Assembly: GCF_030013205.1 (NCBI RefSeq)
Contig: NZ_CP122648.1
Direction: 5' to 3' (one strand)
DNA length: 64,000 bases
Source of the DNA: Escherichia coli
Lineage (GTDB): Bacteria; Pseudomonadota; Gammaproteobacteria; Enterobacterales; Enterobacteriaceae
The translations under genes were made by a program, and so were the position numbers. Under the pieces are notes generated by a model. It worked only from the letters and a program-made list of their open reading frames with translations. It searched no databases and was not told the DNA's origin. Below, in pieces: positions 4,431-64,000 of this stretch (position 1 is the first letter of the stretch; every line of letters starts with the position of its first letter).

Positions 4431-5142
4431 GTGCACAGAAAACCCCCAGCTAGGCTGGGGGTTCCGGAAAGCTTTCAGCTTTGAGCCAGTTATTAAAACC
4501 CCTTTTGATTTGTTAAAACACCTTGCGGTCTGGCAACTGCAAGTGTCAAACAAGAAATCAAAAGGGGGTCCCAATGGGGAACGAAAAGAGCTTAGCGCAC
4601 ACCCGATGGAACTGTAAATATCACATAGTTTTTGCGCCAAAATACCGAAGACAGGTGTTCTACAGAGAGAAGCGTAGAGCAATAGGCAGTATTTTGAGAA
4701 AGCTGTGTGAGTGGAAAAGCGTACGGATTCTGGAAGCTGAATGCTGTGCAGATCATATCCATATGCTTGTGGAGATCCCGCCCAAAATGAGCGTATCCGG
4801 GTTTATGGGATATCTGAAAGGGAAAAGCAGTCTGATGCTTTACGAGCAGTTTGGTGATTTGAAATTCAAATACAGGAACAGGGAGTTCTGGTGCAGAGGG
4901 TACTACGTCGATACAGTGGGTAAGAACACGGCGAAGATACAGGATTACATAAAGCACCAGCTTGAAGAGGATAAAATGGGAGAGCAGTTATCGATTCCCT
5001 ATCCGGGCAGCCCGTTTACGGGCCGTAAGTAACGAAGTTGGATGCAAATGTCAGATCGTGTGCGCCTGTTAGGGCGCGGCTGGTAAGAGAGCCTTATAGG
5101 CGCATTTGAAAAACCTCCGGCTATGCCGGAGGATATTTATTT
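4431..5142 (+). mobile_element. IS200 copy 1 (IS200/IS605 family, tnpA only, ~712 bp)
   Basis: Near-identical (about 5 mismatches) to a second copy at 30213-30923; encodes a 152 aa HuH Y1 transposase; ends with hairpin cctccggctatgccggagg; boundaries +/- 5 bp. Confidence 0.85.
4574..5032 (+). CDS. tnpA: IS200 transposase TnpA (HuH Y1 transposase)
   Basis: MGNEKSLAHTRWNCKYHIVFAPKYRRQ... 152 aa with the conserved HxH motif (ADHIHML); start placed at the internal Met of the listed ORF. Confidence 0.9.
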   Translation: MGNEKSLAHTRWNCKYHIVFAPKYRRQVFYREKRRAIGSILRKLCEWKSVRILEAECCADHIHMLVEIPPKMSVSGFMGYLKGKSSLMLYEQFGDLKFKYRNREFWCRGYYVDTVGKNTAKIQDYIKHQLEEDKMGEQLSIPYPGSPFTGRK

Positions 5143-30212: not shown

Positions 30213-30923
30213 GTGCACAGAAAACCCCCAGCTAGGCTGGGGGTTCCGGAAAGCTTTCAGCTTTGAGCCAGTTATTAAAACCCCTTTTGATTTGTTAAAA
30301 CACCTTGCGGTCTGGCAACTGCAAGTGTCAAACAAGAAATCAAAAGGGGGTCCCAATGGGGAACGAAAAGAGCTTAGCGCACACCCGATGGAACTGTAAA
30401 TATCACATAGTTTTTGCGCCAAAATACCGAAGACAAGTGTTCTACAGAGAGAAGCGTAGAGCAATAGGCAGTATTTTGAGAAAGCTGTGTGAGTGGAAAA
30501 GCGTACGGATTCTTGAAGCTGAATGCTGTGCAGATCATATCCATATGCTTGTGGAGATCCCGCCCAAAATGAGCGTATCCGGCTTTATGGGATATCTGAA
30601 AGGGAAAAGCAGTCTGATGCTTTACGAGCAGTTTGGTGATTTGAAATTCAAATACAGGAACAGAGAGTTCTGGTGCAGAGGGTACTACGTCGATACGGTG
30701 GGTAAGAACACGGCGAAGATACAGGATTACATAAAGCACCAGCTTGAAGAGGATAAAATGGGAGAGCAGTTATCGATTCCCTATCCGGGCAGCCCGTTTA
30801 CGGGCCGTAAGTAACGAAGTTGGATGCAAATGTCAGATCGTGTGCGCCTGTTAGGGCGCGGCTGGTAAGAGAGCCTTATAGGCGCATTTGAAAAACCTCC
30901 GGCTATGCCGGAGGATATTTATT
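30213..30923 (+). mobile_element. IS200 copy 2 (same orientation as copy 1)
   Basis: About 99% identical to 4431-5142; same start (gtgcacagaaaaccccc) and end (ggaggatatttatt); flanks differ on both sides. Confidence 0.85.
30356..30814 (+). CDS. tnpA: IS200 transposase TnpA
   Basis: Protein identical to the copy at 4574-5032. Confidence 0.9.
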   Translation: MGNEKSLAHTRWNCKYHIVFAPKYRRQVFYREKRRAIGSILRKLCEWKSVRILEAECCADHIHMLVEIPPKMSVSGFMGYLKGKSSLMLYEQFGDLKFKYRNREFWCRGYYVDTVGKNTAKIQDYIKHQLEEDKMGEQLSIPYPGSPFTGRK

Positions 30924-39575: not shown

Positions 39576-40904
39576 TTAGCGGCCTTTTGCCAGATATTGC
39601 TCCATCTCTTCTTCCGGCACCATTCCACCTCCCGTCGCCCACACCAGATGAGTGGCATTACGCAGTTGTTCTGCGCTGAAACCGTGCATCTGTTGGTAAC
39701 TTACTGATGCGCACACGCGCTGAGGCCCGGCCATACCCGCCAGTGCCGAAGGTTCAAGACGAATGCCTTCTTCCTGCGCCAGCCAGCCAAGCATGTCATA
39801 CATGGTTTGATCGCTAAGGGTATAGAAGCCATCCAGTAGACGCTCCATTGCCCGCCCGACAAAGCCTGATGCGCGACTAACTGCAAGGCCATCCGCTGCG
39901 GTAAGGTTGTCGATACCAATATCCTGAACAGAAATCTGATCGTGTAATCCAGTATGGACGCCTAACAACATACAAGGGGAGTGCGTTGGTTCGGCAAAAA
40001 AGCAGTGAACATGATCGCCAAACGCCAGTTTAAGTCCGAATGCGACGCCACCAGGACCACCGCCAACACCACACGGCAGATAGACAAACAGAGGGTTATC
40101 AGCATCGACGATACGACCTTGCTCGGCAAATTGCGCTTTAAGACGCTGGCCTGCGACGGAGTACCCAAGGAACAACGTGCGGGAATTCTCGTCATCAATA
40201 AAGAAACAGTTCGGGTCAGACTGCGCTGCTTTACGTCCTTCCTCGACGGCAACACCATAATCTTGCTCATATTCCACGACCGTAACGCCATGGCTGCGCA
40301 GTTTCGCTTTTTTCCACGCCCGGGCATCAGCAGACATATGCACTGTCACCTTAAAGCCAATGCGGGCGCTCATAATGCCGATTGATAACCCCAGATTTCC
40401 GGTTGAGCCCACAGCAATGCTGTATTGACTAAAGAACTGTTTAAACTCCGGAGACAGTAGTTTGCTGTAGTCATCTTCAGGCGTCAGCAACCCCGCTTCC
40501 AGAGCCAGTTTTTCTGCGTGTGCCAGGACTTCATAAATCCCGCCGCGTGCTTTTATGGAGCCGGAAATGGGTAAATGGCTATCTTTTTTCAGTAGCAGTT
40601 GCCCGCTGATCGGTTGTTGATATTCCTTTTCCAGCCGTTTTTGCATAGCCGGAATGGCAACCAGTTCTGATTCAATAATCCCCCCAGTGGCAGCAGTTTC
40701 AGGAAATGCTTTTGCCAGATAGGGTGCAAAACGAGATAAGCGCGCATGGGCGTCCTGAACATCCTGTTCGGTCAGGCCAACATAAGGTAAACCTTCAGCC
40801 AATGAGGTCGTGCCAGGATTAAACCAGGTGGTTTCTTGAAGAGCAACCAGATCCTTTACCAACGGATACTGGGCGATGAGCGAATTCATTTTAGCGTTTT
40901 CCAT
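39576..40904 (-). CDS. dsdA: D-serine dehydratase (PLP-dependent)
   Basis: 442 aa, [31 protein letters not shown]... Confidence 0.93.
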
Positions 40905-40921: not shown

Positions 40922-41140
40922 TTAGATGATAAATGACAGCAGGAATGTGCCCGCCAGAGCGACGACTGAAGCGATAAATGTCGCTGTCGTATAGTATTTA
41001 AATGTTTCATTGAGCGTAGCGCCGCAATATTGCTTCACCAGCCAGAAAAGCGAGTCCGTAACGATCGTGCAGCCAATTGCACTTGAACCGATATCAATCG
41101 TAAAAATTTCCGGGCTGATGTCGGGATACAGCGCCAGCAC
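40922..41140 (-). pseudogene. dsdX: dsdX 3' fragment (D-serine permease, GntP family), truncated by the csc insertion
   Basis: Only about 72 C-terminal codons (…[60 protein letters not shown]) remain; sequence upstream switches abruptly to the cscR region. Confidence 0.75.
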
Positions 41141-41382
41141 AATGATCCATATTTATATTTTCTTCTCCAGATTGGCGATGCCAGTTGGCATGTTTTACCT
41201 ACTTGCCTACATGGTTACTCGTTGGCAAGAACAGAGGCGGAATTGGGTACAATTGTCCGGGAATTATTGTTATTTTTTATTGTATTGCCGTGTCGGGTGA
41301 TAGGGCGTCGAGAATATCGTTGGATCTCGCCAGTGACGTCTGTTTCTGCTACAGTGCCCGTTTTACGGCAAACGGCTTGGGT

Positions 41383-42378
41383 ATGGCTTCATTAAAGGAT
41401 GTCGCACGCCTGGCGGGAGTGTCGATGATGACAGTCTCCCGGGTGATGCATAATGCAGAATCTGTGCGTCCTGCAACGCGTAACCGCGTATTGCAGGCAA
41501 TCCAGACCCTGAATTATGTTCCTGATCTTTCCGCCCGTAAGATGCGCGCTCAAGGACGTAAGCCGTCGACTCTCGCCGTGCTGGCGCAGGACACGGCCAC
41601 CACTCCTTTCTCTGTTGATATTCTGCTTGCCATTGAGCAAACCGCCAGCGAGTTTGGCTGGAATAGTTTTTTAATCAATATTTTTTCTGAAGATGACGCT
41701 GCCCGCGCGGCACGTCAGCTGCTTGCCCACCGTCCGGATGGCATTATCTATACTACAATGGGGCTGCGACATATCACGCTGCCTGAGTCTCTGTATGGTG
41801 AAAATATTGTATTGGCGAACTGTGTGGCGGATGACCCAGCGTTACCCAGTTATATCCCTGATGATTACACTGCACAATATGAATCAACACAGCATTTGCT
41901 CGCGGCGGGCTATCGTCAACCGTTATGCTTCTGGCTACCGGAAAGTGCGTTGGCAACAGGGTATCGTCGGCAGGGATTTGAGCAGGCCTGGCGTGATGCT
42001 GGACGAGATCTGGCTGAGGTGAAACAATTTCACATGGCAACAGGTGATGATCACTACACCGATCTCGCAAGTTTACTCAATGCCCACTTCAAATCGGGCA
42101 AACCAGATTTTGATGTTCTGATATGTGGTAACGATCGCGCAGCCTTTGTGGCTTATCAGGTTCTTTTGGCGAAGGGGGTACGTATCCCGCAGGATGTCGC
42201 CGTAATGGGCTTTGATAATCTGGTTGGCGTCGGGCATCTGTTTTTACCGCCGCTGACCACAATTCAGCTTCCACATGACATTATCGGGCGGGAAGCTGCA
42301 TTGCATATTATTGAAGATCGTGAAGGGGGAAGAGTGACGCGGATCCCTTGCCCGCTGTTGATCCGTTGTTCCACCTGA
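41383..42378 (+). CDS. cscR: Sucrose operon repressor CscR (LacI family)
   Basis: MASLKDVARLAGVSMMTVSRVMHNAESVRPATRNRVLQAIQTLNYVPDLSARKMRA... HTH plus periplasmic-binding-like domain; start placed at the internal Met (331 aa). Confidence 0.85.
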   Translation: MASLKDVARLAGVSMMTVSRVMHNAESVRPATRNRVLQAIQTLNYVPDLSARKMRAQGRKPSTLAVLAQDTATTPFSVDILLAIEQTASEFGWNSFLINIFSEDDAARAARQLLAHRPDGIIYTTMGLRHITLPESLYGENIVLANCVADDPALPSYIPDDYTAQYESTQHLLAAGYRQPLCFWLPESALATGYRRQGFEQAWRDAGRDLAEVKQFHMATGDDHYTDLASLLNAHFKSGKPDFDVLICGNDRAAFVAYQVLLAKGVRIPQDVAVMGFDNLVGVGHLFLPPLTTIQLPHDIIGREAALHIIEDREGGRVTRIPCPLLIRCST

Positions 42379-42385
42379 TATTATG

Positions 42386-43819
42386 TTAACCCAGTTGCCA
42401 GAGTGCTCCATGTTGCAGCACAGCCACTCCGTGGGAGGCATAGAGCGACAGTTCCCGTTCTTCTGGCTGCGGATATATTCGGCTACTCATCACCGCCTCC
42501 CCGTCGTTAATAAATACTTCCACGGATGATGTATCGATAAATATCCTTAGGGCGAGCATGTCACCCTGCGGGAGGGGAATACTACGGTAGCCATCTAAAT
42601 TCTCGTGTGGGTAATACCGCCACAAAACAAGTCGCTCAGATTGGTTATCAATATACAGCCGCATTCCAGTGCCGAGCTGTAATCCGTAATGTTCGGCATC
42701 ACTGTTCTTCAGCGCCCACTGCAACTGAATCTCAACTGCTTGCGCGTTTTCCTGCAAAACATATTTATTGCTGATTGTGCGGGGAGAGATAGATTGATGC
42801 TGCTGGCGTAACGACTCAGCTTCGTGTACCGGGCGTTGTAGAAGTTTGCCATTGCTCTCTGATAGCTCGCGCGCCAGCGTCATGCAGCCTGCCCAGCCTT
42901 CACGTTTTGAGGGCATTGGCGATTCCCACATATCCATCCAGCCGATAACAATACGCCGACCATCCTTCGCTAAAAAGCTTTGTGGTGCATAAAAGTCATG
43001 CCCGTTATCAAGTTCAGTAAAATGCCCGGATTGTGCAAAAAGTCGTCCTGGCGACCACATTCCGGGTATTACGCCACTTTGAAAGCGATTTCGGTAACTG
43101 TATCCCTCGGCATTCATTCCCTGCGGGGAAAACATCAGATAATGCTGATCGCCAAGGCTGAAAAAGTCCGGACATTCCCACATATAGCTTTCACCCGCAT
43201 CAGCGTGGGCCAGTACGCGATCGAAGGTCCATTCACGCAATGAACTGCCGCGATAAAGCAGGATCTGCCCCGTGTTGCCTGGATCTTTCGCCCCGACAAC
43301 CATCCACCATGTGTCGGCTTCACGCCACACTTTAGGATCGCGGAAGTGCATGATTCCTTCTGGTGGAGTGAGGATCACACCCTGTTTCTCGAAATGAATA
43401 CCATCCCGACTGGTAGCCAGACATTGTACTTCGCGAATTGCATCGTCATTACCTGCACCATCGAGCCAGACGTGTCCGGTGTAGATAAGTGAGAGGACAC
43501 CATTGTCATCGACAGCACTACCTGAAAAACACCCGTCTTTGTCATTCTCGTCTCCTGGCGCTAGCGCAATAGGCTCATGCTGCCAGTGGATCATATCGTC
43601 GCTGGTGGCATGTCCCCAGTGCATTGGCCCCCAGTGTTCGCTCATCGGGTGATGTTGATAAAACGCGTGATAACGATCGTTAAACCAGATCAGGCCGTTT
43701 GGATCGTTCATCCACCCGGCAGGAGGCGCGAGGTGAAAATGGGGATAGAAAGTGTTACCTCGGCGCTCGTGAAGTTTTGCTAGTGCGTTTTGCGCCGCAT
43801 GTAATCGAGATTGCGTCAT
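42386..43819 (-). CDS. cscA: Sucrose-6-phosphate hydrolase / invertase CscA (GH32)
   Basis: GH32 motifs (HLAPPAGWMNDPNG; FRDP; WECPD). Confidence 0.88.
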   Translation of the reverse strand: MTQSRLHAAQNALAKLHERRGNTFYPHFHLAPPAGWMNDPNGLIWFNDRYHAFYQHHPMSEHWGPMHWGHATSDDMIHWQHEPIALAPGDENDKDGCFSGSAVDDNGVLSLIYTGHVWLDGAGNDDAIREVQCLATSRDGIHFEKQGVILTPPEGIMHFRDPKVWREADTWWMVVGAKDPGNTGQILLYRGSSLREWTFDRVLAHADAGESYMWECPDFFSLGDQHYLMFSPQGMNAEGYSYRNRFQSGVIPGMWSPGRLFAQSGHFTELDNGHDFYAPQSFLAKDGRRIVIGWMDMWESPMPSKREGWAGCMTLARELSESNGKLLQRPVHEAESLRQQHQSISPRTISNKYVLQENAQAVEIQLQWALKNSDAEHYGLQLGTGMRLYIDNQSERLVLWRYYPHENLDGYRSIPLPQGDMLALRIFIDTSSVEVFINDGEAVMSSRIYPQPEERELSLYASHGVAVLQHGALWQLG

Positions 43820-44034
43820 TTTTATCATCCTGGTTAAGCAAATTTGGTGAATTGTTAACGTTAACTTTTATAAAAATAAAGTCCCTTACTTTCATAAATG
43901 CGATGAATATCACAAATGTTAACGTTAACTATGACGTTTTGTGATCGAATATGCATGTTTTAGTAAATCCATGACGATTTTGCGAAAAAGAGGTTTATCA
44001 CTATGCGTAAGTCAGATGAATTTAAGGGAAAAAA

Positions 44035-44958
44035 ATGTCAGCCAAAGTATGGGTTTTAGGGGATGCGGTCGTAGATCTCTTGCCAGAATCAGACGGGCGG
44101 CTACTGCCTTGTCCTGGCGGCGCGCCAGCTAACGTTGCGGTGGGAATCGCCAGATTAGGCGGAACAAGTGGGTTTATAGGTCGGGTCGGTGATGATCCTT
44201 TTGGTGCGTTAATGCAAAGAACGCTGCTAACTGAGGGTGTCGATATCACGTATCTGAAGCAAGATGAATGGCACCGGACATCCACGGTGCTTGTCGATCT
44301 GAACGATCAAGGAGAACGTTCATTTACGTTTATGGTCCGCCCCAGTGCCGATCTTTTTTTAGAGACGACAGACTTGCCCTGCTGGCGACATGGCGAATGG
44401 TTACATCTCTGTTCAATTGCGTTGTCTGCCGAGCCTTCGCGTACCAGCGCATTTACTGCGATGACGGCGATCCGGCATGCCGGAGGTTTTGTCAGCTTCG
44501 ATCCCAATATTCGTGAAGATCTATGGCAAGACGAGCATTTGTTCCGCTTGTGTTTGCGGCAGGCGCTACAACTGGCGGATGTCGTCAAGCTCTCGGAAGA
44601 AGAATGGCGACTTATCAGTGGAAAAACACAGAACGATCGGGATATATGCGCGCTGGCAAAAGAGTATGAGATCGCCATGCTGTTGGTGACTAAAGGTGCA
44701 GAAGGGGTGGTGGTCTGTTATCGAGGACAAGTTCACCATTTTGCTGGAATGTCTGTGAATTGTGTCGATAGCACTGGGGCGGGAGATGCGTTCGTTGCCG
44801 GGTTACTCACAGGTCTGTCCTCTACGGGATTATCTACAGATGAGAGAGAAATGCGACGAATTATCAATCTCGCTCAACGTTGCGGAGCGCTTGCAGTAAC
44901 AGCGAAAGGGGCAATGACAGCGCTGCCATGTCGACAAGAACTGGAAGGTGAGAAGTAA
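44035..44958 (+). CDS. cscK: Fructokinase CscK (PfkB/ribokinase family)
   Basis: 307 aa, MSAKVWVLGDAVVDLLPE...; DTTGAGDAF-type motif (DSTGAGDAFVAG). Confidence 0.88.
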   Translation: MSAKVWVLGDAVVDLLPESDGRLLPCPGGAPANVAVGIARLGGTSGFIGRVGDDPFGALMQRTLLTEGVDITYLKQDEWHRTSTVLVDLNDQGERSFTFMVRPSADLFLETTDLPCWRHGEWLHLCSIALSAEPSRTSAFTAMTAIRHAGGFVSFDPNIREDLWQDEHLFRLCLRQALQLADVVKLSEEEWRLISGKTQNDRDICALAKEYEIAMLLVTKGAEGVVVCYRGQVHHFAGMSVNCVDSTGAGDAFVAGLLTGLSSTGLSTDEREMRRIINLAQRCGALAVTAKGAMTALPCRQELEGEK

Positions 44959-45019
44959 ACGGCGAGGCCGCTCTTATCTCTAAATAGGACATGAATTTTT
45001 TAACGACAGGCAGGTAATT

Positions 45020-46267
45020 ATGGCACTGAATATTCCATTCAGAAATGCGTACTATCGTTTTGCATCCAGTTACTCATTTCTCTTTTTTATTTCCTGGTCG
45101 CTGTGGTGGTCGTTATACGCTATTTGGCTGAAAGGACATCTAGGATTAACAGGGACGGAATTAGGTACACTTTATTCGGTCAACCAGTTTACCAGCATTC
45201 TATTTATGATGTTCTACGGCATCGTTCAGGATAAACTCGGTCTGAAGAAACCGCTCATCTGGTGTATGAGTTTCATTCTGGTCTTGACCGGACCGTTTAT
45301 GATTTACGTTTATGAACCGTTACTGCAAAGCAATTTTTCTGTAGGTCTAATTCTGGGGGCGCTCTTTTTTGGCCTGGGGTATCTGGCGGGATGCGGTTTG
45401 CTTGACAGCTTCACCGAAAAAATGGCGCGAAATTTTCATTTCGAATATGGAACAGCGCGCGCCTGGGGATCTTTTGGCTATGCTATTGGCGCGTTCTTTG
45501 CCGGTATATTTTTTAGTATCAGTCCCCATATCAACTTCTGGTTGGTCTCGCTATTTGGCGCTGTATTTATGATGATCAACATGCGTTTTAAAGATAAGGA
45601 TCACCAGTGCATAGCGGCGGATGCGGGAGGGGTAAAAAAAGAGGATTTTATCGCAGTTTTCAAGGATCGAAACTTCTGGGTTTTTGTCATATTTATTGTG
45701 GGGACGTGGTCTTTCTATAACATTTTTGATCAACAACTCTTTCCTGTCTTTTATGCAGGTTTATTCGAATCACACGATGTAGGAACGCGCCTGTATGGTT
45801 ATCTCAACTCATTCCAGGTGGTACTCGAAGCGCTGTGCATGGCGATTATTCCTTTCTTTGTGAATCGGGTAGGGCCAAAAAATGCATTACTTATCGGTGT
45901 TGTGATTATGGCGTTGCGTATCCTTTCCTGCGCGTTGTTCGTTAACCCCTGGATTATTTCATTAGTGAAGCTGTTACATGCCATTGAGGTTCCACTTTGT
46001 GTCATATCCGTCTTCAAATACAGCGTGGCAAACTTTGATAAGCGCCTGTCGTCGACGATCTTTCTGATTGGTTTTCAAATTGCCAGTTCGCTTGGGATTG
46101 TGCTGCTTTCAACGCCGACTGGGATACTCTTTGACCACGCAGGCTACCAGACAGTTTTCTTCGCAATTTCGGGTATTGTCTGCCTGATGTTGCTATTTGG
46201 CATTTTCTTCCTGAGTAAAAAACGCGAGCAAATAGTTATGGAAACGCCTGTACCTTCAGCAATATAG
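45020..46267 (+). CDS. cscB: Sucrose:H+ symporter CscB (oligosaccharide:H+ symporter MFS)
   Basis: 415 aa 12-TM MFS, LacY-like. Confidence 0.88.
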   Translation: MALNIPFRNAYYRFASSYSFLFFISWSLWWSLYAIWLKGHLGLTGTELGTLYSVNQFTSILFMMFYGIVQDKLGLKKPLIWCMSFILVLTGPFMIYVYEPLLQSNFSVGLILGALFFGLGYLAGCGLLDSFTEKMARNFHFEYGTARAWGSFGYAIGAFFAGIFFSISPHINFWLVSLFGAVFMMINMRFKDKDHQCIAADAGGVKKEDFIAVFKDRNFWVFVIFIVGTWSFYNIFDQQLFPVFYAGLFESHDVGTRLYGYLNSFQVVLEALCMAIIPFFVNRVGPKNALLIGVVIMALRILSCALFVNPWIISLVKLLHAIEVPLCVISVFKYSVANFDKRLSSTIFLIGFQIASSLGIVLLSTPTGILFDHAGYQTVFFAISGIVCLMLLFGIFFLSKKREQIVMETPVPSAI

Positions 46268-46708
46268 ACGTAAACTTTTTCCGGTTGTTGTCGATATTTC
46301 CATATCCCTCAACCGGAAAATAATAATACAAAAATGCTTAGCCCAACTAATAATCACCTAATCCAAACGCCTCATTCATGTTCTGGTACAGTCGCTCAAA
46401 TGTACTCCGGATACGCGGTTCGCTGATTTCCAGGACATTGTCGTCATTCAGCGACCTGTCCCGAGTATCACGGGCCTGCGAATTCATCAAGGAATGCATT
46501 GCAGAGTGAAGTATCGAGTCACGCCATATTTCGCTATCAGGATTCTGTATGATGGTTACATCGCCCGGCCCAGGGCTGTTTAGTCATCAGCGCTTTCTGA
46601 CAGTGCTGAGATTTCAACCTGTTGCAGTAAAAATGAGTAGATATAGGGCAAGTGTGCTGCCAAACCCATCTTTTACGGGGTGAAGGTAGATATTGTTAGA
46701 AGGGTATC

Positions 46709-46723
46709 TGGTGTCCCCTGCAG
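46709..46723 (-). repeat. att-core repeat: copy of the argW tRNA 3' end (reverse complement of CTGCAGGGGACACCA)
   Basis: tggtgtcccctgcag with no tRNA body attached; a second degenerate copy lies at 59970-59988. Confidence 0.6.
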
Positions 46724-46796: not shown

Positions 46797-46997
46797 TTAC
46801 CCATTGGCGCGGCTTAAGAGCTTATTTTTGAATTCACAATGGTCACGATATAACCATCTTGCTCGCCCGTGGATAACTTTGGCTTTTGGCAGGTCGCCGG
46901 ACTTAATCCGGTCGTAGATGAAGGTTTTACCAAAGCCAGTATCAGCCATGATGAATTTCAAATCAACCAGGGAATCAGGCTGTAGTTCGTGTTGCAT
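46797..46997 (-). CDS. AlpA/Vis-family phage transcriptional regulator / excisionase-like protein
   Basis: 66 aa with the AlpA-type motif …TGFGKTFIYDRIKSGDLPKAKVIHGRARWLYRDHCEF…. Confidence 0.65.
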   Translation of the reverse strand: MQHELQPDSLVDLKFIMADTGFGKTFIYDRIKSGDLPKAKVIHGRARWLYRDHCEFKNKLLSRANG

Positions 46998-47344
46998 GAG
47001 TGCTATCTCCGAATAGGGAATCGAACCTGCAAATCAGGCAAGAAAAAACCGCCATCAGGCGGTTTGGTGTTCTTTCAGTTCTTCAATTCGAATATTGGTT
47101 ACGTCTGCATGCGCTATCTGCGCCCATATCATCCAGTGGTTATAGCAGTCGTTGATGTCCTCTGCTTCGATAAGGAGAAGAAATTCCCAATTACTCAAGA
47201 GCTATACGAGCGACTGGAAAGCGTCATCCATGATTACGATGGTGAAATCAGTTTATGCGAGGCGATTGGCACACTTGAATTGCTGAAGCAGTCATTGATT
47301 GAAGGCGCGAAAGAGTCCTTAGCCTGAAATAACAACTAAGTGAG

Positions 47345-47818
47345 ATGAATATGGCAGCACCAAAGGGCAACCGATTTTGGGAGGCCCGCAGTAGTCATGG
47401 GCGAAATCCTAAATTCGAATCGCCTGAGGCGCTGTGGGCTGCTTGTTGTGAATACTTCGAGTGGGTAGAAGCTAACCCGCTATGGGAGATGAAGGCATTC
47501 TCGTATCAGGGTGAAGTGATACAAGAGCCTATCGCCAAGATGCGAGCGATGACCATTATCCAAACCGTATGCCTGTTGGTAGCGGTAATCAGTTGGCGAA
47601 GTGGAACGGTTGGAGTTACTTCCAGCGAAAGGAACCTTGCGATAACGGGAGCGAATAATGCCGATTCAGCAACTTCCGCTCATGAAAGGTGTCGGAAAAG
47701 ACTTCCGAAACGCCGACTATATCGACTATCTGCCAGTGAATATGTTGGCTACACCCAAAGAAATCCTGAACAGCAGCGGATATCTTCGCTCATTCCCGGG
47801 CATTGCCAAACGTTCTGA
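47345..47818 (+). pseudogene. P22 gene 3-like small terminase, N-terminal ~70 codons only, fused to unrelated out-of-frame sequence
   Basis: [69 protein letters not shown] then diverges; overlaps the start of the gp10-like gene. Confidence 0.6.
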
Positions 47819-58650: not shown

Positions 58651-59808
58651 TCACTCCACCTTTTCATCAATCCAGTCCGCCCACCACTGCATCATCTCCC
58701 GGCGCTTATCGAGATACTGAGCATGGTTGTAAATCCCGCGCACAGATCCGCCGTTGGCATGTGCCAGTTGCACTTCAATAGCATCAGCAGGCCATTCGTG
58801 CTCGTTCATAATCGTGCTGAATTCATGCCTGAATCCGTGACCGCTTTCCAGACCTTCATAGCCGATTTGTTTGATCACAAGCAGTACAGCGTTCTCGCAG
58901 ATTGGCTTCTTCTTATCGTTGCGCCCGGCAAAAACAAACTCTGATACTGGTTTAGTGATTGAGCTTAGTGTAGTGAGAAGTTCAACCACCTGGTCTGACA
59001 TCGGGACAACATGAATTTTGCGTCCCTTCATCACACTGGCGTCGATGGTGATAATCCTGTTTTCAAAATCGACGTTCTTCCATAGCATGGAACGAAGCTC
59101 TTTTGTTCTTAGGGCTGTGTAGCGTAAAACTTTGGTCGCAATGAGCGATACGATACTTCCTGAAAATGTTGCAAGTGCTTTGTTGAATGCCGGGATCTGG
59201 TCGGCAGGTAAAAACGGGAAGTTCTTCTTGCGGTATCCCTTCATGGCGTCAGCAAGGTCAGGTGCCGGGTTATATTTAGCCCTACCAGTAACAATAGCGT
59301 AACGGAAAACCTCGCCGCATCTTCTGCGTGCTTTGTTGGCTCGCTCCATTGCACCGCGATCTTCAAATCTGCGGATTACTTCCAGAAGTTGCATCGGCTC
59401 AATATCCTGAATTTCAAGGCCGCCGATGATAGGTAAAATGTCGTCATCAAACATTTTTGCAAGTTCATTTGCATAGCCTACTGACCAGACTTGCTTCTTG
59501 TGCTCGTACCATTCCTTGTAAATGGCGCTAAAGGAATTGTTGTTAGACGAAGCCTTTTTCGCCTTTACCGGATCGATGCCAACCGAGATGTCTTTCCTCG
59601 CAGTCCATGCTTTATCCCTTGCCTCTTGCAAAGTCATAAGCGGATATTTTCCGACGGTCAGGATTTTCTCCTTACCGTCAATCTTGTAGCGAAGCTGCCA
59701 TACCTTTTTCCCTGATACAGGGACATAAAGATACAGGCCATTACCATCGAGTAGGCGGTATGGTTTTTCTTTCGGCTTTGCTGCTTCAATCTGCTTAACG
59801 GTGAGCAT
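58651..59808 (-). CDS. intS: P4-type tyrosine integrase (IntS-like, N-terminal DUF4102 arm-binding domain)
   Basis: MLTVKQIEAAKPKEKPYRLLDGNGLYLYVPVSGKKVWQLRYKIDGKEKILTVGKYP…; catalytic R…HxxR…Y region near the C-terminus; start at internal Met of ORF 58651-59844. Confidence 0.88.
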   Translation of the reverse strand: MLTVKQIEAAKPKEKPYRLLDGNGLYLYVPVSGKKVWQLRYKIDGKEKILTVGKYPLMTLQEARDKAWTARKDISVGIDPVKAKKASSNNNSFSAIYKEWYEHKKQVWSVGYANELAKMFDDDILPIIGGLEIQDIEPMQLLEVIRRFEDRGAMERANKARRRCGEVFRYAIVTGRAKYNPAPDLADAMKGYRKKNFPFLPADQIPAFNKALATFSGSIVSLIATKVLRYTALRTKELRSMLWKNVDFENRIITIDASVMKGRKIHVVPMSDQVVELLTTLSSITKPVSEFVFAGRNDKKKPICENAVLLVIKQIGYEGLESGHGFRHEFSTIMNEHEWPADAIEVQLAHANGGSVRGIYNHAQYLDKRREMMQWWADWIDEKVE

Positions 59809-59969
59809 GGGTAAAAATCCGGTGGGTAAAATTATTTTATCCACTTTTTACCCGTCATGGAGTGCGGCTGTCAACGATCTGACGCGAACCATGACGAACC
59901 GTGAATATACGGAAGGCTTGATATTCAGGGTATTTTGCGGACTGGTACGGATGGGAGCGAACTGATAAA

Positions 59970-59988
59970 TGGTGTCCCTGCAGAAATC
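59970..59988 (-). repeat. Degenerate att-core repeat derived from the argW 3' end
   Basis: tggtgtccctgcagaaatc versus the reverse complement of the argW 3' end tggtgtcccctgcaggaatc (one deletion, one mismatch); no tRNA body. Confidence 0.5.
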
Positions 59989-60205: not shown

Positions 60206-60454
60206 ATGCGCACACAGGTTGTATTGCAAAAATGGGGTAACAGCATTGCCCTTCGACTAACGGGAAACCTTAAAACCGTTCCGGGTTTTTCAGTGGGTGA
60301 TATCGTCAACGTTGAAATTAGTGAAAAAGGGCTTTTTGTAGAAAAGCCTGCACGCCGTCGCCTGAGTGAAGCCGAACTACTCGCCGGGATAACGCCAGTT
60401 ACAGCGCACGCTGACGAAATTGCCACCCCATTCAATGAGGAGGTTGATTACTGA
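60206..60454 (+). CDS. MazE/PemI-like antitoxin (AbrB/SpoVT-type swapped-hairpin)
   Basis: 82 aa, MRTQVVLQKWGNSIALRLTGNLKTVPGFSVGDIVNVEISEKGLFVEKP…; RBS aggag; stop overlaps the toxin start (TGATG). Confidence 0.75.
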   Translation: MRTQVVLQKWGNSIALRLTGNLKTVPGFSVGDIVNVEISEKGLFVEKPARRRLSEAELLAGITPVTAHADEIATPFNEEVDY

Positions 60455-60798
60455 TGTTTGTACCTAAGCGTGGTGATATTTGCTGGCTGGATTTTGAGCC
60501 GCAGAAAGGAAAAGAGATCGGAAAGTATCGCCCGGCACTCATACTATCCCATGAGCAATATAACCGACTCACCGGGCTTGTCATATGCTGCCCCATAAGT
60601 ACGAGCATACGAAATGCTCCCACAGAAGTTCCGGTAACAAATCTGGACGCCCCCAGCGTGGTAGCAACCACACTCATTCAAACCCTTGACTGGCGTCAGC
60701 GGAAAGCGCGCTTAATCACAGAGGCAGAAGATGGGGTATTTAATGATGTGCTTGAAAGAGTCATTACTCTGATTGGTGGAGAGCATCTGCTTAAGTAA
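60454..60798 (+). CDS. MazF/PemK-family endoribonuclease toxin
   Basis: 114 aa, MFVPKRGDICWLDFEPQKGKEIGKYRPALILSHEQYNRLTGLVICCPISTS…; translationally coupled to the upstream antitoxin. Confidence 0.75.
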   Translation: MFVPKRGDICWLDFEPQKGKEIGKYRPALILSHEQYNRLTGLVICCPISTSIRNAPTEVPVTNLDAPSVVATTLIQTLDWRQRKARLITEAEDGVFNDVLERVITLIGGEHLLK

Positions 60799-60841
60799 AA
60801 GGAGGGCTGAGAAGCCCTCAACGTTACCGGAAATTTCCTTG

Positions 60842-62113
60842 CTATTCTTTCCAGTCAATCCCATCCAGTAAGCACCCTGCCTCATATTGCCCCACCACCC
60901 AGTCAAGGTTACAGGACTCATAGAACGCGAGGCGATTATACTGAGGCTCGTTTTTTACCAGGCCACGAACGGAACCACGCTGCCAGTACAGACACAGATT
61001 GGCAAGAGGTGTGATCAATACAGCATTGTCCGGGAAAAATGGAACGGTCACAGCCGGGAGATTCCCCAGAACGGGATTTTTAATGATTTCCTCGTTAAGC
61101 AAAATTTCCTGATTCATCTGCGATGGATCAAGACGGTTTATCAAAGGCCATTGTTTACGGACCAGCGTATTGTGACTGCATACGGCCACAATGCCTTCCT
61201 GCCACTGTTCATCAATCATGGATTGCCAGGCATCCAGAACGAGCGCATCTATCGTATGGTGTGTACCGCGTATATTACTTTTCGGTGATGAGACAGAAAG
61301 GCCGCTGATAACCCTTCCCGCCGCTTCATTTCGAAACTTCTGCAACCAGCCCACGCCGCAATCGTCACGCCCCGGATATGTTCCGGGATCTGATACATCG
61401 GCATAGTGCGTACCGTTAAAACCAATCTGAATCAAATCCAGCCATTTCTGGCGTTCAAAAGCAGCCCGGGCGCTTCCTTCAAGACCGTTTGCGGATGCGT
61501 GAGCATCAACATTGTCGTAGTTCAGCGCAAAATCAAAATTAACCTGCTCGCAGCGGTAGCCCCTTGAAACCAGTGAATGCGCCTGTAGTGGCGAGCGGCG
61601 CTCGTGAGGTGGCGATGTACGTGCTAACGGCCCCGAAGCGTCTACCAGCACAACCTGACCTGATATATCCGTAACAGGCACGGGAGTTATTTCAGCAAGG
61701 AAATTTGCCTGCCATCCACTGGCAAGCGTTGCACTCTGGCGGGGGACGGGTTCAACTTCTGACGAATAGCGCGCAGTGTCACCGGAAAAGTGCAAATCCT
61801 TCGGATGCTTTCCGGTTATCGACTCGATAGCGCAATTGAAAACCATCTGAGACTGTTGATTTCGTTGTGATACAACAGAATCAGCAGTGCAATTATAACG
61901 CTCAATGCCGTCGTTATTACCCCCACCGCTTGCAGTATGCAGGGTGTGAAGCTCAAGCTCACGCTCCAGTTTTTGATATTCATTGTCCAGCGCGCGACGC
62001 GTCTCATCGCTTATGCTTGCTGTGTTTGCTTTCAGGCGATTCCGGGACATTAATCCCCTGAGTCGGCTCACTATATCAGCGCCGTGCAAATGTGGAGTAT
62101 TCAGACCGCCCAT
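60842..62113 (-). CDS. P2-family major capsid protein-like (GpN-like), tentative
   Basis: Segments (…CEQVNFDF…, …IGFNG…GVGWLQKFRNEA…, …LGNLPAVTVPFFPDNAVLITPLANL…YESCNLDWVVGQYEAGCL…) resemble remembered P2 GpN; start placed at the Met whose ATG overlaps the upstream gene's stop; listed ORF extends to 62254. Confidence 0.5.
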   Translation of the reverse strand: MGGLNTPHLHGADIVSRLRGLMSRNRLKANTASISDETRRALDNEYQKLERELELHTLHTASGGGNNDGIERYNCTADSVVSQRNQQSQMVFNCAIESITGKHPKDLHFSGDTARYSSEVEPVPRQSATLASGWQANFLAEITPVPVTDISGQVVLVDASGPLARTSPPHERRSPLQAHSLVSRGYRCEQVNFDFALNYDNVDAHASANGLEGSARAAFERQKWLDLIQIGFNGTHYADVSDPGTYPGRDDCGVGWLQKFRNEAAGRVISGLSVSSPKSNIRGTHHTIDALVLDAWQSMIDEQWQEGIVAVCSHNTLVRKQWPLINRLDPSQMNQEILLNEEIIKNPVLGNLPAVTVPFFPDNAVLITPLANLCLYWQRGSVRGLVKNEPQYNRLAFYESCNLDWVVGQYEAGCLLDGIDWKE

Positions 62114-62823
62114 TACTGCCACCCCCGGCAGAGTTCTCTGCCCTCCGCAAGGTCGCGCATTTTTTCTGGATTCTGTCGCGCCGCGCTCCATTGTACAGGT
62201 GAAGGGGCGCTCCTGATTGCGCAGCTTACTGAATCCGGGAGTTTCTCCGGGCAATAACGCAGCGGGCTGGAGGTGTCGCTTTCGGTATCGTTAATCCGGC
62301 CGCGAATCATCCCGACACTTTCAGCAGTATCTGCCGCTTTCAGTGTTTCGCATATTTTCTTTTCTGCGTTATACAGCGGCTGGCCAAGTAGCTCACATAA
62401 ACCACGAATCAATAACAGAACAGGGGTCAGCTCGTTAATCAGTTCGGGAAGTGCTTTTGCAAATATCTCTGCCCGCAACTTATTATCAATGCTTTCGTAA
62501 GCACAACCAGCCTCTGCCGCGTTATAACGACACTCCAGTAGCCTGATGCGCGCTTCATCATGCAATACCCGCAGACGCTCAAGATTTTCTCGCGCCACAC
62601 CCGCCTGAATGGATAATTTCGCGGAGGCTTCCGTTTTTACGCCCAGCGCAGACAGGATTGAGTTCTGCCAGTCACGATCGAGAGATTCCAGCTCCCCTTT
62701 CGTCTGTTCGATAGTCGCTTCCAGATTGGTGATTAATGATTCCTGTTCACTGAGTTTTGCCATGGCTGTATCAAACTGTGCTTTACATACCTGATGTTCG
62801 GCGCTTGCCTGAGTTATATCCAT
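62113..62823 (-). CDS. Coiled-coil phage morphogenesis protein (scaffold/Sid-like), tentative
   Basis: 236 aa, helical N-terminus; immediately upstream of and translationally coupled (ATGA) to the capsid-like gene. Confidence 0.35.
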   Translation of the reverse strand: MDITQASAEHQVCKAQFDTAMAKLSEQESLITNLEATIEQTKGELESLDRDWQNSILSALGVKTEASAKLSIQAGVARENLERLRVLHDEARIRLLECRYNAAEAGCAYESIDNKLRAEIFAKALPELINELTPVLLLIRGLCELLGQPLYNAEKKICETLKAADTAESVGMIRGRINDTESDTSSPLRYCPEKLPDSVSCAIRSAPSPVQWSAARQNPEKMRDLAEGRELCRGWQ

Positions 62824-62949
62824 TATTTGCTCCTGTAATACATTTTTTTACTTACGCCGATTTTTTCCATATTGCGTAATACATTCCAGCCGATTTTGTT
62901 CTCGTAATACGCTCACAATACTGTTGTATTACGCTTTCTTATATCGCGG
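62824..62949. promoter_or_regulatory. Divergent intergenic control region with repeated GTAATACATT / CGTAATAC motifs
   Basis: gtaatacatt at 62835-62844 and 62876-62885; cgtaatac at 62903-62910; gtattacg at 62926-62933; gccgatttt repeated twice. Confidence 0.5.
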
Positions 62950-63222
62950 GTGTTAAATCCCGGCATAAACAATCAGGGAGGCAACACGATGAAAAAACAA
63001 AAGAAAATGCGATGCGTATTACGCTGTATTCGTATCCCGCACGAAATCGACCATAAAATAAATCAGATATGTGAGGACAGAGAGATGAACTACTCCCAGT
63101 GCGTCAGAATGTTTATCAGTCAGGGAATTAAGGCCGGGGAAAAGCAGGAAGAAGACCACAACGGGCGCAATGTAGCGGGGGATGTGTGGGCCTGGGCAAA
63201 TGACCAGAACCACACGACGTAA
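62950..63222 (+). CDS. Small ribbon-helix-helix-like DNA-binding protein, tentative
   Basis: …MRCVLRCIRIPHEIDHKINQICEDREMNYSQCVRMFISQGIKAG… fits a beta-strand then helix-helix RHH pattern; true start may be the Met at 62989. Confidence 0.4.
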   Translation: MLNPGINNQGGNTMKKQKKMRCVLRCIRIPHEIDHKINQICEDREMNYSQCVRMFISQGIKAGEKQEEDHNGRNVAGDVWAWANDQNHTT

Positions 63223-63272
63223 TACAGAAATAACGCAGCCGGTCACACTCGCTGGCTGTGTTATACAAATCA

Positions 63273-63455
63273 CTATGAAGTTTTCGACTTCCTGCGCTTA
63301 GTAATGCGTACAAACGACTCAAGCGTACAAAAACAAGCCCCACACTCAATATTGTTGCACTGGTAATACGTTCTGTAGATGTTTTGTTCGTGTTCTTCCA
63401 ACGAACGACCACGGGTGCGAGCTGAAGCGCCACAGGCCGGGCAAGGGAAAGACAT
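63273..63455 (-). CDS. ogr: Ogr/Delta-family zinc-finger late-gene activator
   Basis: 60 aa, CPACG…YYQCNNIECGACFCTLESFVR matches the Ogr C2C2 pattern. Confidence 0.7.
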   Translation of the reverse strand: MSFPCPACGASARTRGRSLEEHEQNIYRTYYQCNNIECGACFCTLESFVRITKRRKSKTS

Positions 63456-63745
63456 ATCGCGCTCCTCTTACTGGCGTGAAATTTAACCTATTATATCTTC
63501 CGTTGCCTCCTCTGGCTGTATCAAATAAATCCGCGATGGTCGCTGCGTATTACGCGCAGACACACCGTTCCCATGCTCACTCCTCACATTCCCCGTATCA
63601 ATTCTCTCTTGCCGTAAGAACGGCTCTGGCTGGCGATAAAACTAACCCGGTCAGGCATTCCCGCAGTCTTTAGCGAAAGATGTAATTTACCCCCTGAAAC
63701 GCGGGCTGTTCCCCCGTCACCTGCGCGCGAAAAACTCACCGTTTT

Positions 63746-63844
63746 TTGTGCACGCACGAAATCGCCCTCCGGGCGCGCCAGTACCGGGCCGGATGGGCAA
63801 AAAGTTACTCTAAAAAATTGTGCAAATTTGTGCACTTTTGTGCA
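63746..63844. repeat. Phased TTGTGCA direct repeats (4 copies, last 3 spaced 10 bp)
   Basis: ttgtgca at 63746-63752, 63818-63824, 63828-63834 and 63838-63844. Confidence 0.5.
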
Positions 63845-64000
63845 GATGAACAACAGCGTCAAAAAGAGTGCTTTTGAGAGATTTTTTATGGCAACTGCGC
63901 CGCGTGTATTACGTTTTTACCATCCCCGCCGCGCATGTACATACTTCATTTTTCTGCCAAACAACAGGGCAACTCCCCGTGACTGACAGCCCCAAAAAAT

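Follow-up and report, generated by a model that had tools for sequence, protein, structure and literature searches.

The replacement of dsdC and most of dsdX by the csc sucrose genes has been published in identical form for E. coli W (PMC3032704) and EHEC EDL933 (PMC7486766), and it is also found in commensal collections. In E. coli W (ATCC 9637), the order at 2,658,309-2,663,194 of NC_017635.1 is torI, cscB, cscK, cscA, cscR, a 219-nt dsdX remnant, dsdA, emrY and emrK. In EHEC O157:H7 EDL933, csc likewise takes the place of dsdC and the 5' part of dsdX, giving cscBKAR, a truncated dsdX and a silent dsdA; in EHEC, the combination of csc and dsd traits has been associated with restriction to niches outside the urinary tract, which is rich in D-serine (PMC7486766). 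K-12 and UPEC strains carry the dsdCXA locus at the same chromosomal site. The scr PTS regulon of Klebsiella and some B2 E. coli resembles csc in serving sucrose use and in containing a LacI-type repressor, a GH32 hydrolase and a fructokinase; however, scr includes the PTS EII ScrA and the porin ScrY and hydrolyzes sucrose-6-phosphate, and growth on sucrose is fast with scr and slow with csc (PMC11251922). The phylogroup distribution of csc is treated in the same study (PMC11251922).

We compared these systems with the window, i.e., the whole stretch of 64,000 nucleotides analysed here. On the basis of sequence comparison, the locus is very probably the chromosomal regulon for non-PTS sucrose catabolism in E. 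coli, csc, in its standard form and at the canonical location. The sequence-only reading had placed csc where dsdX and dsdC would be expected, and gene identities, order and orientation agreed with that reading when verified against K-12 and E. coli W. Homology to K-12 stopped at 41139/41140 of the window and resumed exactly at 46709 in megablast and MAFFT alignments; the K-12 counterpart of the island is a 2368-bp segment comprising dsdC, the dsdC-dsdX intergenic region and nt 1-1120 of dsdX. The island is flanked by the 3' 219 nt of dsdX on one side and by the att core of an argW-integrated prophage on the other, so that it lies between a truncated dsdX beside dsdA and the argW-linked variable/prophage region. 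Compared with the dsdCXA locus of K-12 and UPEC, the window lacks dsdC, the dsdC-dsdX promoter region and dsdX codons 1-373, whereas dsdA and the last 72 dsdX codons are orthologous at approximately 97.5% DNA identity. As approximately half of the complete E. coli genomes carry cscRAKB here, the arrangement is an ordinary one that is already known. The finding helps in annotating strains and predicting their phenotypes and adds little as a discovery.

Table 1. Features of the csc island and its flanks, in window coordinates.
Feature	Position	Strand	Description	Evidence
dsdA	39576-40904	-	D-serine ammonia-lyase; 442 aa, full length	TIGR02035, 808 bits (cut-off 368), profile 1-431/431
dsdX remnant (pseudogene)	40922-41140	-	last 72 codons and stop; N-terminal 373 codons missing	
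csc island	41141-46708		approximately 5.57 kb: cscR, cscA, cscK, cscB and DUF4942 fragment	breakpoints against K-12 by megablast and MAFFT
cscR	41383-42378	+	LacI-family repressor of csc regulon; 331 aa	PF00356 and PF00532, both full length
cscA	42386-43819	-	GH32 sucrose hydrolase (invertase); 477 aa	TIGR01322, 478 bits; GH32 N and C domains
putative CscR operator 1	43854-43865		perfect 12-bp palindrome GTTAACGTTAAC	repeat search; identical in W
CRP-like site	43899-43914		TGCGA-N6-TCACA, between the two putative operators	read from sequence; identical in W
putative CscR operator 2	43918-43929		perfect 12-bp palindrome GTTAACGTTAAC	repeat search; identical in W
cscK	44035-44958	+	pfkB-family fructokinase; 307 aa	NF006957 equivalog, 506 bits (cut-off 450)
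cscB	45020-46267	+	sucrose:H+ symporter, LacY family; 415 aa	PF01306, 644 bits, full length
DUF4942 fragment	46347-46499	-	50 codons, between cscB and att core	PF13708, E = 8e-6, profile 18-62/190
prophage att core	46709-46723	-	TGGTGTCCCCTGCAG; reverse complement of argW 3' end; right boundary of variable segment	
torI	46797-46997	-	excisionase, TorR inhibitor of argW-integrated prophage	RefSeq annotation in ETEC1748 and W

The four csc ORFs were uninterrupted by frameshifts, stops or IS insertions. The suggested alignment with the csc locus of E. coli W was run, and the four proteins were 98.7-99.5% identical to their W counterparts over a colinear stretch: 328/331 residues for CscR, 471/477 for CscA, 301/304 for CscK and 413/415 for CscB. 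The differences thus number three in CscR (including D312G and N34D, the latter near the DNA-binding domain), six in CscA, three in CscK and two in CscB; in addition, CscK is three residues longer at its C-terminus in the window (307 aa) than in W (304 aa). The GH32 motifs WMNDPNG, RDP and ECP were readable in CscA. The proposed orientation, with cscA divergent from cscKB, was borne out by coordinates and strands: cscA diverges from the cscKB operon, cscR lies downstream of and convergent with cscA, and W has matching order and spacing. The longest ORF at cscA is 480 aa and begins three codons upstream of the RefSeq start used in ETEC1748 and W. At cscR, the longest ORF has a TTG start and 397 codons, overextending the 331-aa gene.

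Beyond the csc genes, the segment torI-csc-dsdX'-dsdA-emrYK-evgAS is colinear between W and the window over 16.1 kb at 97.5% identity (approximately 2.5% DNA divergence), with both breakpoints identical. The window differs from W in a 12-nt indel upstream of cscR, in a dsdX-remnant allele with a cluster of five substitutions and in the prophage past torI. Thirteen primers from the published work on the csc regulon of W (PMC3938415) aligned at their expected sites in the window, with zero or one mismatch each. The EDL933 locus has a geometry like that of the window, with cscA, antisense cscR, the dsdX remnant and dsdA read along one strand; O157:H7 genomes carry an island 98.5% identical to this one and have the junction in common with it, but the window belongs to a different lineage (porcine ETEC, O139:H1). 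The scr regulon differs from the locus described here, which has a LacY-type symporter and neither a PTS nor a porin gene. The names given by RefSeq PGAP in many records are generic ('MFS transporter', 'aminoimidazole riboside kinase' and 'LacI family regulator'), as would be expected if the ORFs were only generic LacI, GH32, pfkB and LacY-family paralogs, or were decayed as in Shigella. We give next to no credence to this reading, which was refuted by the comparisons with W and by newer annotations: the ORFs are almost identical to the experimentally characterized W genes, order, spacing and operators agree, the reading frames are undamaged, and newer RefSeq records name cscR, cscA, cscK and cscB in a genome with 99.6% identity across the whole island (with CscR as 'sucrose operon repressor CscR'). 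The possibility, raised by the sequence-only reading itself, that the ORFs are not csc homologs therefore did not hold for any of the four.

The 215-bp region between cscA and cscKB contains two perfect 12-bp palindromes, 64 bp apart, and a CRP-like site. A passage of PMC11251922, citing Jahreis 2002, describes a pair of 12-bp inverted repeats in the cscA-cscK interval as putative operators, and the source also reports a Crp-cAMP site adjoining the cscA -35 region. This reported site probably corresponds to bases 43899-43914 here. Only two positions of the 215-bp region differed from W, neither of them in the putative operators or the CRP-like site. A generic sigma-70 scan of the cscA-cscK region found no promoter-like site; CRP-dependent promoters fit the consensus poorly.

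By analogy with what has been published for W, EC3132 and EHEC, CscB would import sucrose together with a proton, CscA would split it into glucose and fructose, and CscK would phosphorylate the fructose. CscR, bound to the two GTTAACGTTAAC palindromes, would keep cscA and cscKB repressed until sucrose reaches a high level, and csc expression would also require cAMP-CRP. As coding and regulatory sequences are wild type and W-like, we expect growth on sucrose to be regulated and typically slow or dependent on high sucrose concentrations. The simple Suc+ phenotype predicted earlier is therefore too strong, although sucrose use itself is still the likely outcome. Among csc+ scr- isolates, 23/29 grew slowly or very slowly on sucrose and 5/29 did not grow; four of these five had no visible csc defect (PMC11251922), indicating that an intact locus does not guarantee growth. 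In W, derepression of csc needs more than 1% sucrose (PMC3938415). These observations are also what would be seen if csc were intact but phenotypically cryptic, owing to overly tight CscR repression or to factors outside the locus. In the window, CscR and the operators are wild type, and so is CscB at L51, C327, Q353, L363 and F371, the residues at which mutation permits growth on low sucrose (PMC3938415). However, the regulatory region and the proteins are close to those of W, which grows well on 2% sucrose (PMC3032704), and we consider a cryptic locus possible but doubtful. Regulated sucrose use, probably slow and confined to high concentrations, remains the predicted phenotype.

On the dsd side, the sequence-only reading had described an intact dsdA beside the last 72 or so codons of dsdX, and both descriptions proved correct. 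DsdA matched TIGR02035 from end to end and was identical to K-12 DsdA at 435/442 residues. The remnant matched the DsdX profile at positions 374-445/445 only and corresponded to residues 374-445 of K-12 DsdX at 91.7% identity in tblastn; in both ETEC1748 and W, RefSeq labels the matching stretch a partial DsdX. No match to dsdC was found in the whole 64-kb window (best tblastn E = 0.54). Hence, of a dsdCXA detoxification locus, the window holds intact dsdA and neither dsdC nor full-length dsdX (445 aa). Because DsdC and the DsdC-dependent dsdXA promoter are lost, dsdA should be nearly silent, and we expect the strain to be sensitive to D-serine and incapable of using it. The same replacement leaves dsdA silent in EHEC EDL933 (PMC7486766). 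The earlier prediction of impaired D-serine uptake and regulation thus stands for regulation, where loss of DsdC would silence dsdA and make D-serine toxic; it does not stand for uptake as the main defect. Other transporters, CycA among them, have been implicated in D-serine uptake (PMC7486766). The D-serine phenotype we predict is inhibition and no catabolism.

D-serine catabolism could nevertheless be kept by a second complete dsdCXA copy elsewhere, as reported for K1 strains. Some genomes, e.g., UTI89, show two places matching dsdC-dsdX; a few strains have both loci entire, and dsdC is often kept alongside csc (PMC11251922). Matches to the window reached 99.9-100% in porcine ETEC and O139:H1 strains, and the closest complete genome was that of the porcine ETEC strain ETEC1748, with one mismatch in 30.2 kb and none in a further 6.2 kb. 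No dsdC or dsdX 5' sequence was found elsewhere in this near-identical published genome. A chimeric query, consisting of 2.6 kb of window sequence and 1.5 kb of the K-12 dsdC-dsdX 5' region, matched ETEC1748 and 10 clone-mates at a single place and with its prophage part only; a query with the dsdX 3' end and dsdA 5' end likewise matched a single place in all of them. On plasmids, dsdC-dsdX gave no match in the whole genome collection. The complete dsdX-dsdC copy elsewhere, which the sequence-only reading had allowed for, was thus searched for, and ETEC1748 has no second copy; we regard such a copy as extremely unlikely, and loss of D-serine catabolism remains the preferred reading.

A related question is whether the intact dsdA is a relic. 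The dN/dS of dsdA was approximately 0.10 against both K-12 and W, a value that fits ongoing selection as well as recent recombination; W and K-12 dsdA are identical at the nucleotide level, which points to recombination. It is conceivable, but in our judgment very unlikely, that dsdA is under purifying selection in the porcine ETEC/O139 lineage because it can still be expressed, either because transcription induced by sucrose at the cscA promoter reads through antisense cscR or because small deletions of cscR recur. The geometry along one strand, with cscA, cscR, dsdX' and dsdA in line, is what lets dsdA be switched on again from the cscA promoter after deletions in the cscR region, a route shown in EHEC; wild-type read-through into dsdA was low in an EHEC reporter (PMC7486766). 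If such expression took place, D-serine detoxification would be coupled to sucrose availability.

At the right boundary, the ETEC1748 annotation gives the DUF4942 fragment as a DUF4942 protein, and the stretch is also present in W. The 15-bp att core is identical to K-12 'pawZ', where cryptic prophage CPS-53 ends in the K-12 annotation. ARAGORN and Rfam found no argW in the window, where only att-core remnants were seen. The first conserved gene past the island was torI, in a region of 97.9% DNA identity to K-12.

Finally, we counted the alleles among 5426 complete E. coli genomes. The csc island, scored as present if at least 80% of its sequence was found, occurred in 2645/5426, the junction type of the window in 2661/5426, and dsdC with the 5' part of dsdX in 2698/5426; the island and dsdC/dsdX-5' counts together amount to 98.5% of the genomes. 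These counts put numbers on the frequency of the csc and dsdCX alleles and on their near mutual exclusion, confirming published conclusions and not extending them. As the junction is common to essentially all csc+ genomes, it points to one ancestral replacement, which would later have been passed on by vertical descent and through homologous recombination at this hotspot. O157:H7 strain TR01 has a rare junction at which another 45 nt of dsdX are retained, and only two records matched this junction at >=99%. O157:H7 was rejected as a second junction class, as other O157:H7 genomes carry the junction of the window and W.

The sequence-only reading had placed the sucrose regulon csc at 40922-46267 in place of dsdX and dsdC, and this observation is confirmed. 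The ORF map and family scans bore out its coordinates and description, except that the longest-ORF starts lay too far upstream, by 3 codons for cscA and 66 codons for cscR, when compared with the RefSeq annotation of E. coli W and of the porcine ETEC genome ETEC1748 (NZ_CP122719.1). DsdA is intact (808 bits against an equivalog cut-off of 368) and is identical to K-12 DsdA at 435/442 residues. Of the 445 positions in the DsdX model, the dsdX remnant covers only 374-445, corresponding to residues 374-445 of K-12 DsdX with no other part matched. DsdC had no match across the whole 64 kb window (best E = 0.54). The cscR, cscA, cscK and cscB assignments held on domain matches and near-identity to the W proteins, with cscA divergent from cscKB as described.

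Features of the csc-dsd locus and the adjoining prophage
Feature	Coordinates	Strand	Description
dsdA	39576-40904	-	442 aa; D-serine ammonia-lyase equivalog, full-length match
dsdX remnant	40922-41140	-	72-codon ORF, 17 nt upstream of dsdA
cscR	41383-42378	+	331 aa; LacI HTH and Peripla_BP_1 sugar-binding domain
cscA	42386-43819	-	477 aa; GH32 N and C domains
Putative CscR operator palindromes GTTAACGTTAAC	43854-43865, 43918-43929		perfect 12-bp, 64 bp apart (repeat search)
CRP-like site TGCGA-N6-TCACA	43899-43914		between both palindromes
cscK	44035-44958	+	307 aa; fructokinase equivalog, 506 bits (cut-off 450)
cscB	45020-46267	+	415 aa; LacY_symp, 644 bits
DUF4942 fragment	46347-46499	-	50 codons; within the island besides the four csc genes
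Truncated small-terminase, gp4, tail and acyltransferase genes	within 46797-59808		ETEC1748 annotation
P22-like ejection-protein genes	within 46797-59808		ETEC1748 annotation
IS1	53750-54447		inside degraded prophage; ETEC1748 annotation
gtrA/DUF2142/glycosyltransferase O-antigen modification module	55862-58500		ETEC1748 annotation

Homology to K-12 MG1655, assessed using MAFFT and megablast, stops at 41139/41140 (dsdX nt 1120/1121) and restarts at 46709. Approximately 5.57 kb (41141-46708, the island) thus stands where K-12 carries 2368 bp, namely dsdC, the dsdC-dsdX intergenic region and dsdX nt 1-1120. On the right the island stops exactly at the outer edge of TGGTGTCCCCTGCAG, a sequence that reverse-complements the 3' end of argW; the K-12 annotation names it pawZ, located at the end of cryptic prophage CPS-53. 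Past this att core lies torI, followed by a degraded prophage extending to intS.

The alignment with W (NC_017635.1) showed the same order, torI, cscB, cscK, cscA, cscR, a 219-nt dsdX remnant, dsdA, emrY and emrK, and was colinear (97.5% identity, three small gaps) over 16.1 kb from torI to yfdE. Identity to the W proteins was 413/415 for CscB, 301/304 for CscK, 471/477 for CscA and 328/331 for CscR, and 13 primers taken from published work on the W csc regulon (PMC3938415) matched at their expected positions with 0-1 mismatch. At its C-terminus, CscK extends 3 codons beyond the W protein (44950-44958), and the window has 12 nt more than W upstream of cscR (41310-41321), which are shared by O157:H7 strain TR01. 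Close to where the dsdX remnant breaks off (about 41090-41140), five substitutions in ~50 nt distinguish the window from W, O157:H7 and K-12; 147 records matched a 181-nt junction probe that includes them at at least 99%. Drift in a pseudogene or a small patch of recombination may explain this cluster.

A complete dsdX-dsdC copy elsewhere would speak against loss of these genes, and the window alone cannot answer this question. We used ETEC1748, which differs from the window by 1 mismatch in 30,201 nt and none in a further 6,196 nt. A query of dsdA 5' plus dsdX 3' matched one place in ETEC1748; of the 27 other best-matching genomes, 26 likewise gave one place only. A chimeric query, joining 2.6 kb of lineage-specific window sequence to 1.5 kb of K-12 dsdC-dsdX 5', matched a single place in ETEC1748 and 10 clone-mates, through its prophage part, with no dsdC-dsdX 5' match. 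As both queries found only one place in ETEC1748, no second dsdCX copy was found in this near-identical genome, and the interpretation that csc stands in place of dsdCX is supported.

For csc+ E. coli this is a well-known, textbook arrangement, found in about half of sequenced strains. Among 5426 complete E. coli genomes, the island was present in 2645 (at least 80% coverage), the exact dsdX/csc junction in 2661 (181-nt probe, at least 80%) and K-12 dsdC with the dsdX 5' part in 2698 (at least 80%; plasmid copies, 0). The csc and dsdCX counts sum to 98.5% of genomes, indicating that the species is split almost completely between the two alleles. The published csc frequency (35-37% of isolates, with csc near-universal in B1, D and E and absent from phylogroups A and F) and the reported near mutual exclusivity of csc and dsdCX (PMC11251922) are in line with these counts. 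That csc genomes share a single junction points to one ancestral replacement, which would have spread by descent and homologous recombination. TR01 has a variant junction (L005:1495-1540, its locus) with 45 nt more dsdX, a 264-nt remnant; this junction is rare (2 records at at least 99%), other O157:H7 genomes share the junction of the window and W, and the TR01 variant may be a gene-conversion patch. The 1329-nt dsdA of W (L003:23661-24989, csc allele) and of K-12 (L002:15203-16531, dsdCX allele) are nucleotide-identical, while the adjacent emrY differs at 8 sites, consistent with recent homologous exchange at a recombination hotspot.

The csc parts are observed in the window; how they act comes from published work, and we infer that this carries over to this strain. 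CscB would import sucrose by proton symport, CscA would hydrolyse it and CscK would phosphorylate the fructose; CscR would repress the divergent cscA and cscKB promoters, which would need cAMP-CRP (PMC3938415, PMC11251922). Just two positions distinguish the 215-bp cscA-cscK intergenic region, which holds both palindromes and the CRP-like site, from its W counterpart. Following Jahreis et al. 2002, PMC11251922 describes a pair of 12-bp inverted repeats in the cscA-cscK gap, on either side of the cscA promoter, as putative CscR operators, with a Crp-cAMP site adjacent. The W regulon is derepressed only above ~1% sucrose, and mutation at CscB L51, C327, Q353, L363 or F371 permits low-sucrose growth (PMC3938415); all five residues are wild type in the window and CscR is full length. 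Of 29 csc+ scr- isolates in a commensal collection, 23 showed slow or very slow growth on sucrose and 5 showed none, 4 of these 5 having no obvious locus defect (PMC11251922). Given the high-sucrose need of W and this slow or absent growth, the predicted Suc+ phenotype is better read as growth that is probably slow and dependent on high sucrose.

The predicted impairment of D-serine uptake and regulation stood for regulation, which would be the main defect; impaired uptake would be secondary. In EDL933, DsdC loss renders the D-serine system non-functional and D-serine toxic, and CycA and SstT are other transporters implicated in uptake (PMC7486766), suggesting that the defect here would lie mainly in dsdA regulation. 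Deletions that take out cscR were shown to restore dsdA activity by fusing the gene to the cscA promoter (PMC7486766); the window has the geometry for this too, since the - strand reads in turn through cscA, antisense cscR, the dsdX remnant and dsdA.

The torI-intS prophage (46797-59808) is heavily degraded in the ETEC1748 annotation. No argW gene was found within the window using ARAGORN and Rfam, which returned a sole tRNA; an argW remnant, the last ~20 nt (59969-59988), adjoins intS (58651-59808), where the att core reads CTGCAGGGACACCA, one G short. A further integrated element (60206-64000) carries a MazE/PemK toxin-antitoxin pair, a P2-family capsid gene, an ogr/Delta gene and a second integrase. 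Together with the remnant, this element suggests tandem integration, and several elements seem to lie in tandem at argW. The tRNA found is tRNA-Ala(GGC) (1920-1995), between yfeC and pdeA, a region that in K-12 presumably holds two tandem tRNA-Ala genes (alaX, alaW). STnc490 RNA occurs twice (4441-4564 and 30223-30346, 146.4 bits each), marking IS200C insertions in the pdeA/nupC and yfdV/yfdE gaps; K-12 and W lack the latter copy. An insQ/TnpB-type gene occupies the window start (1-906).
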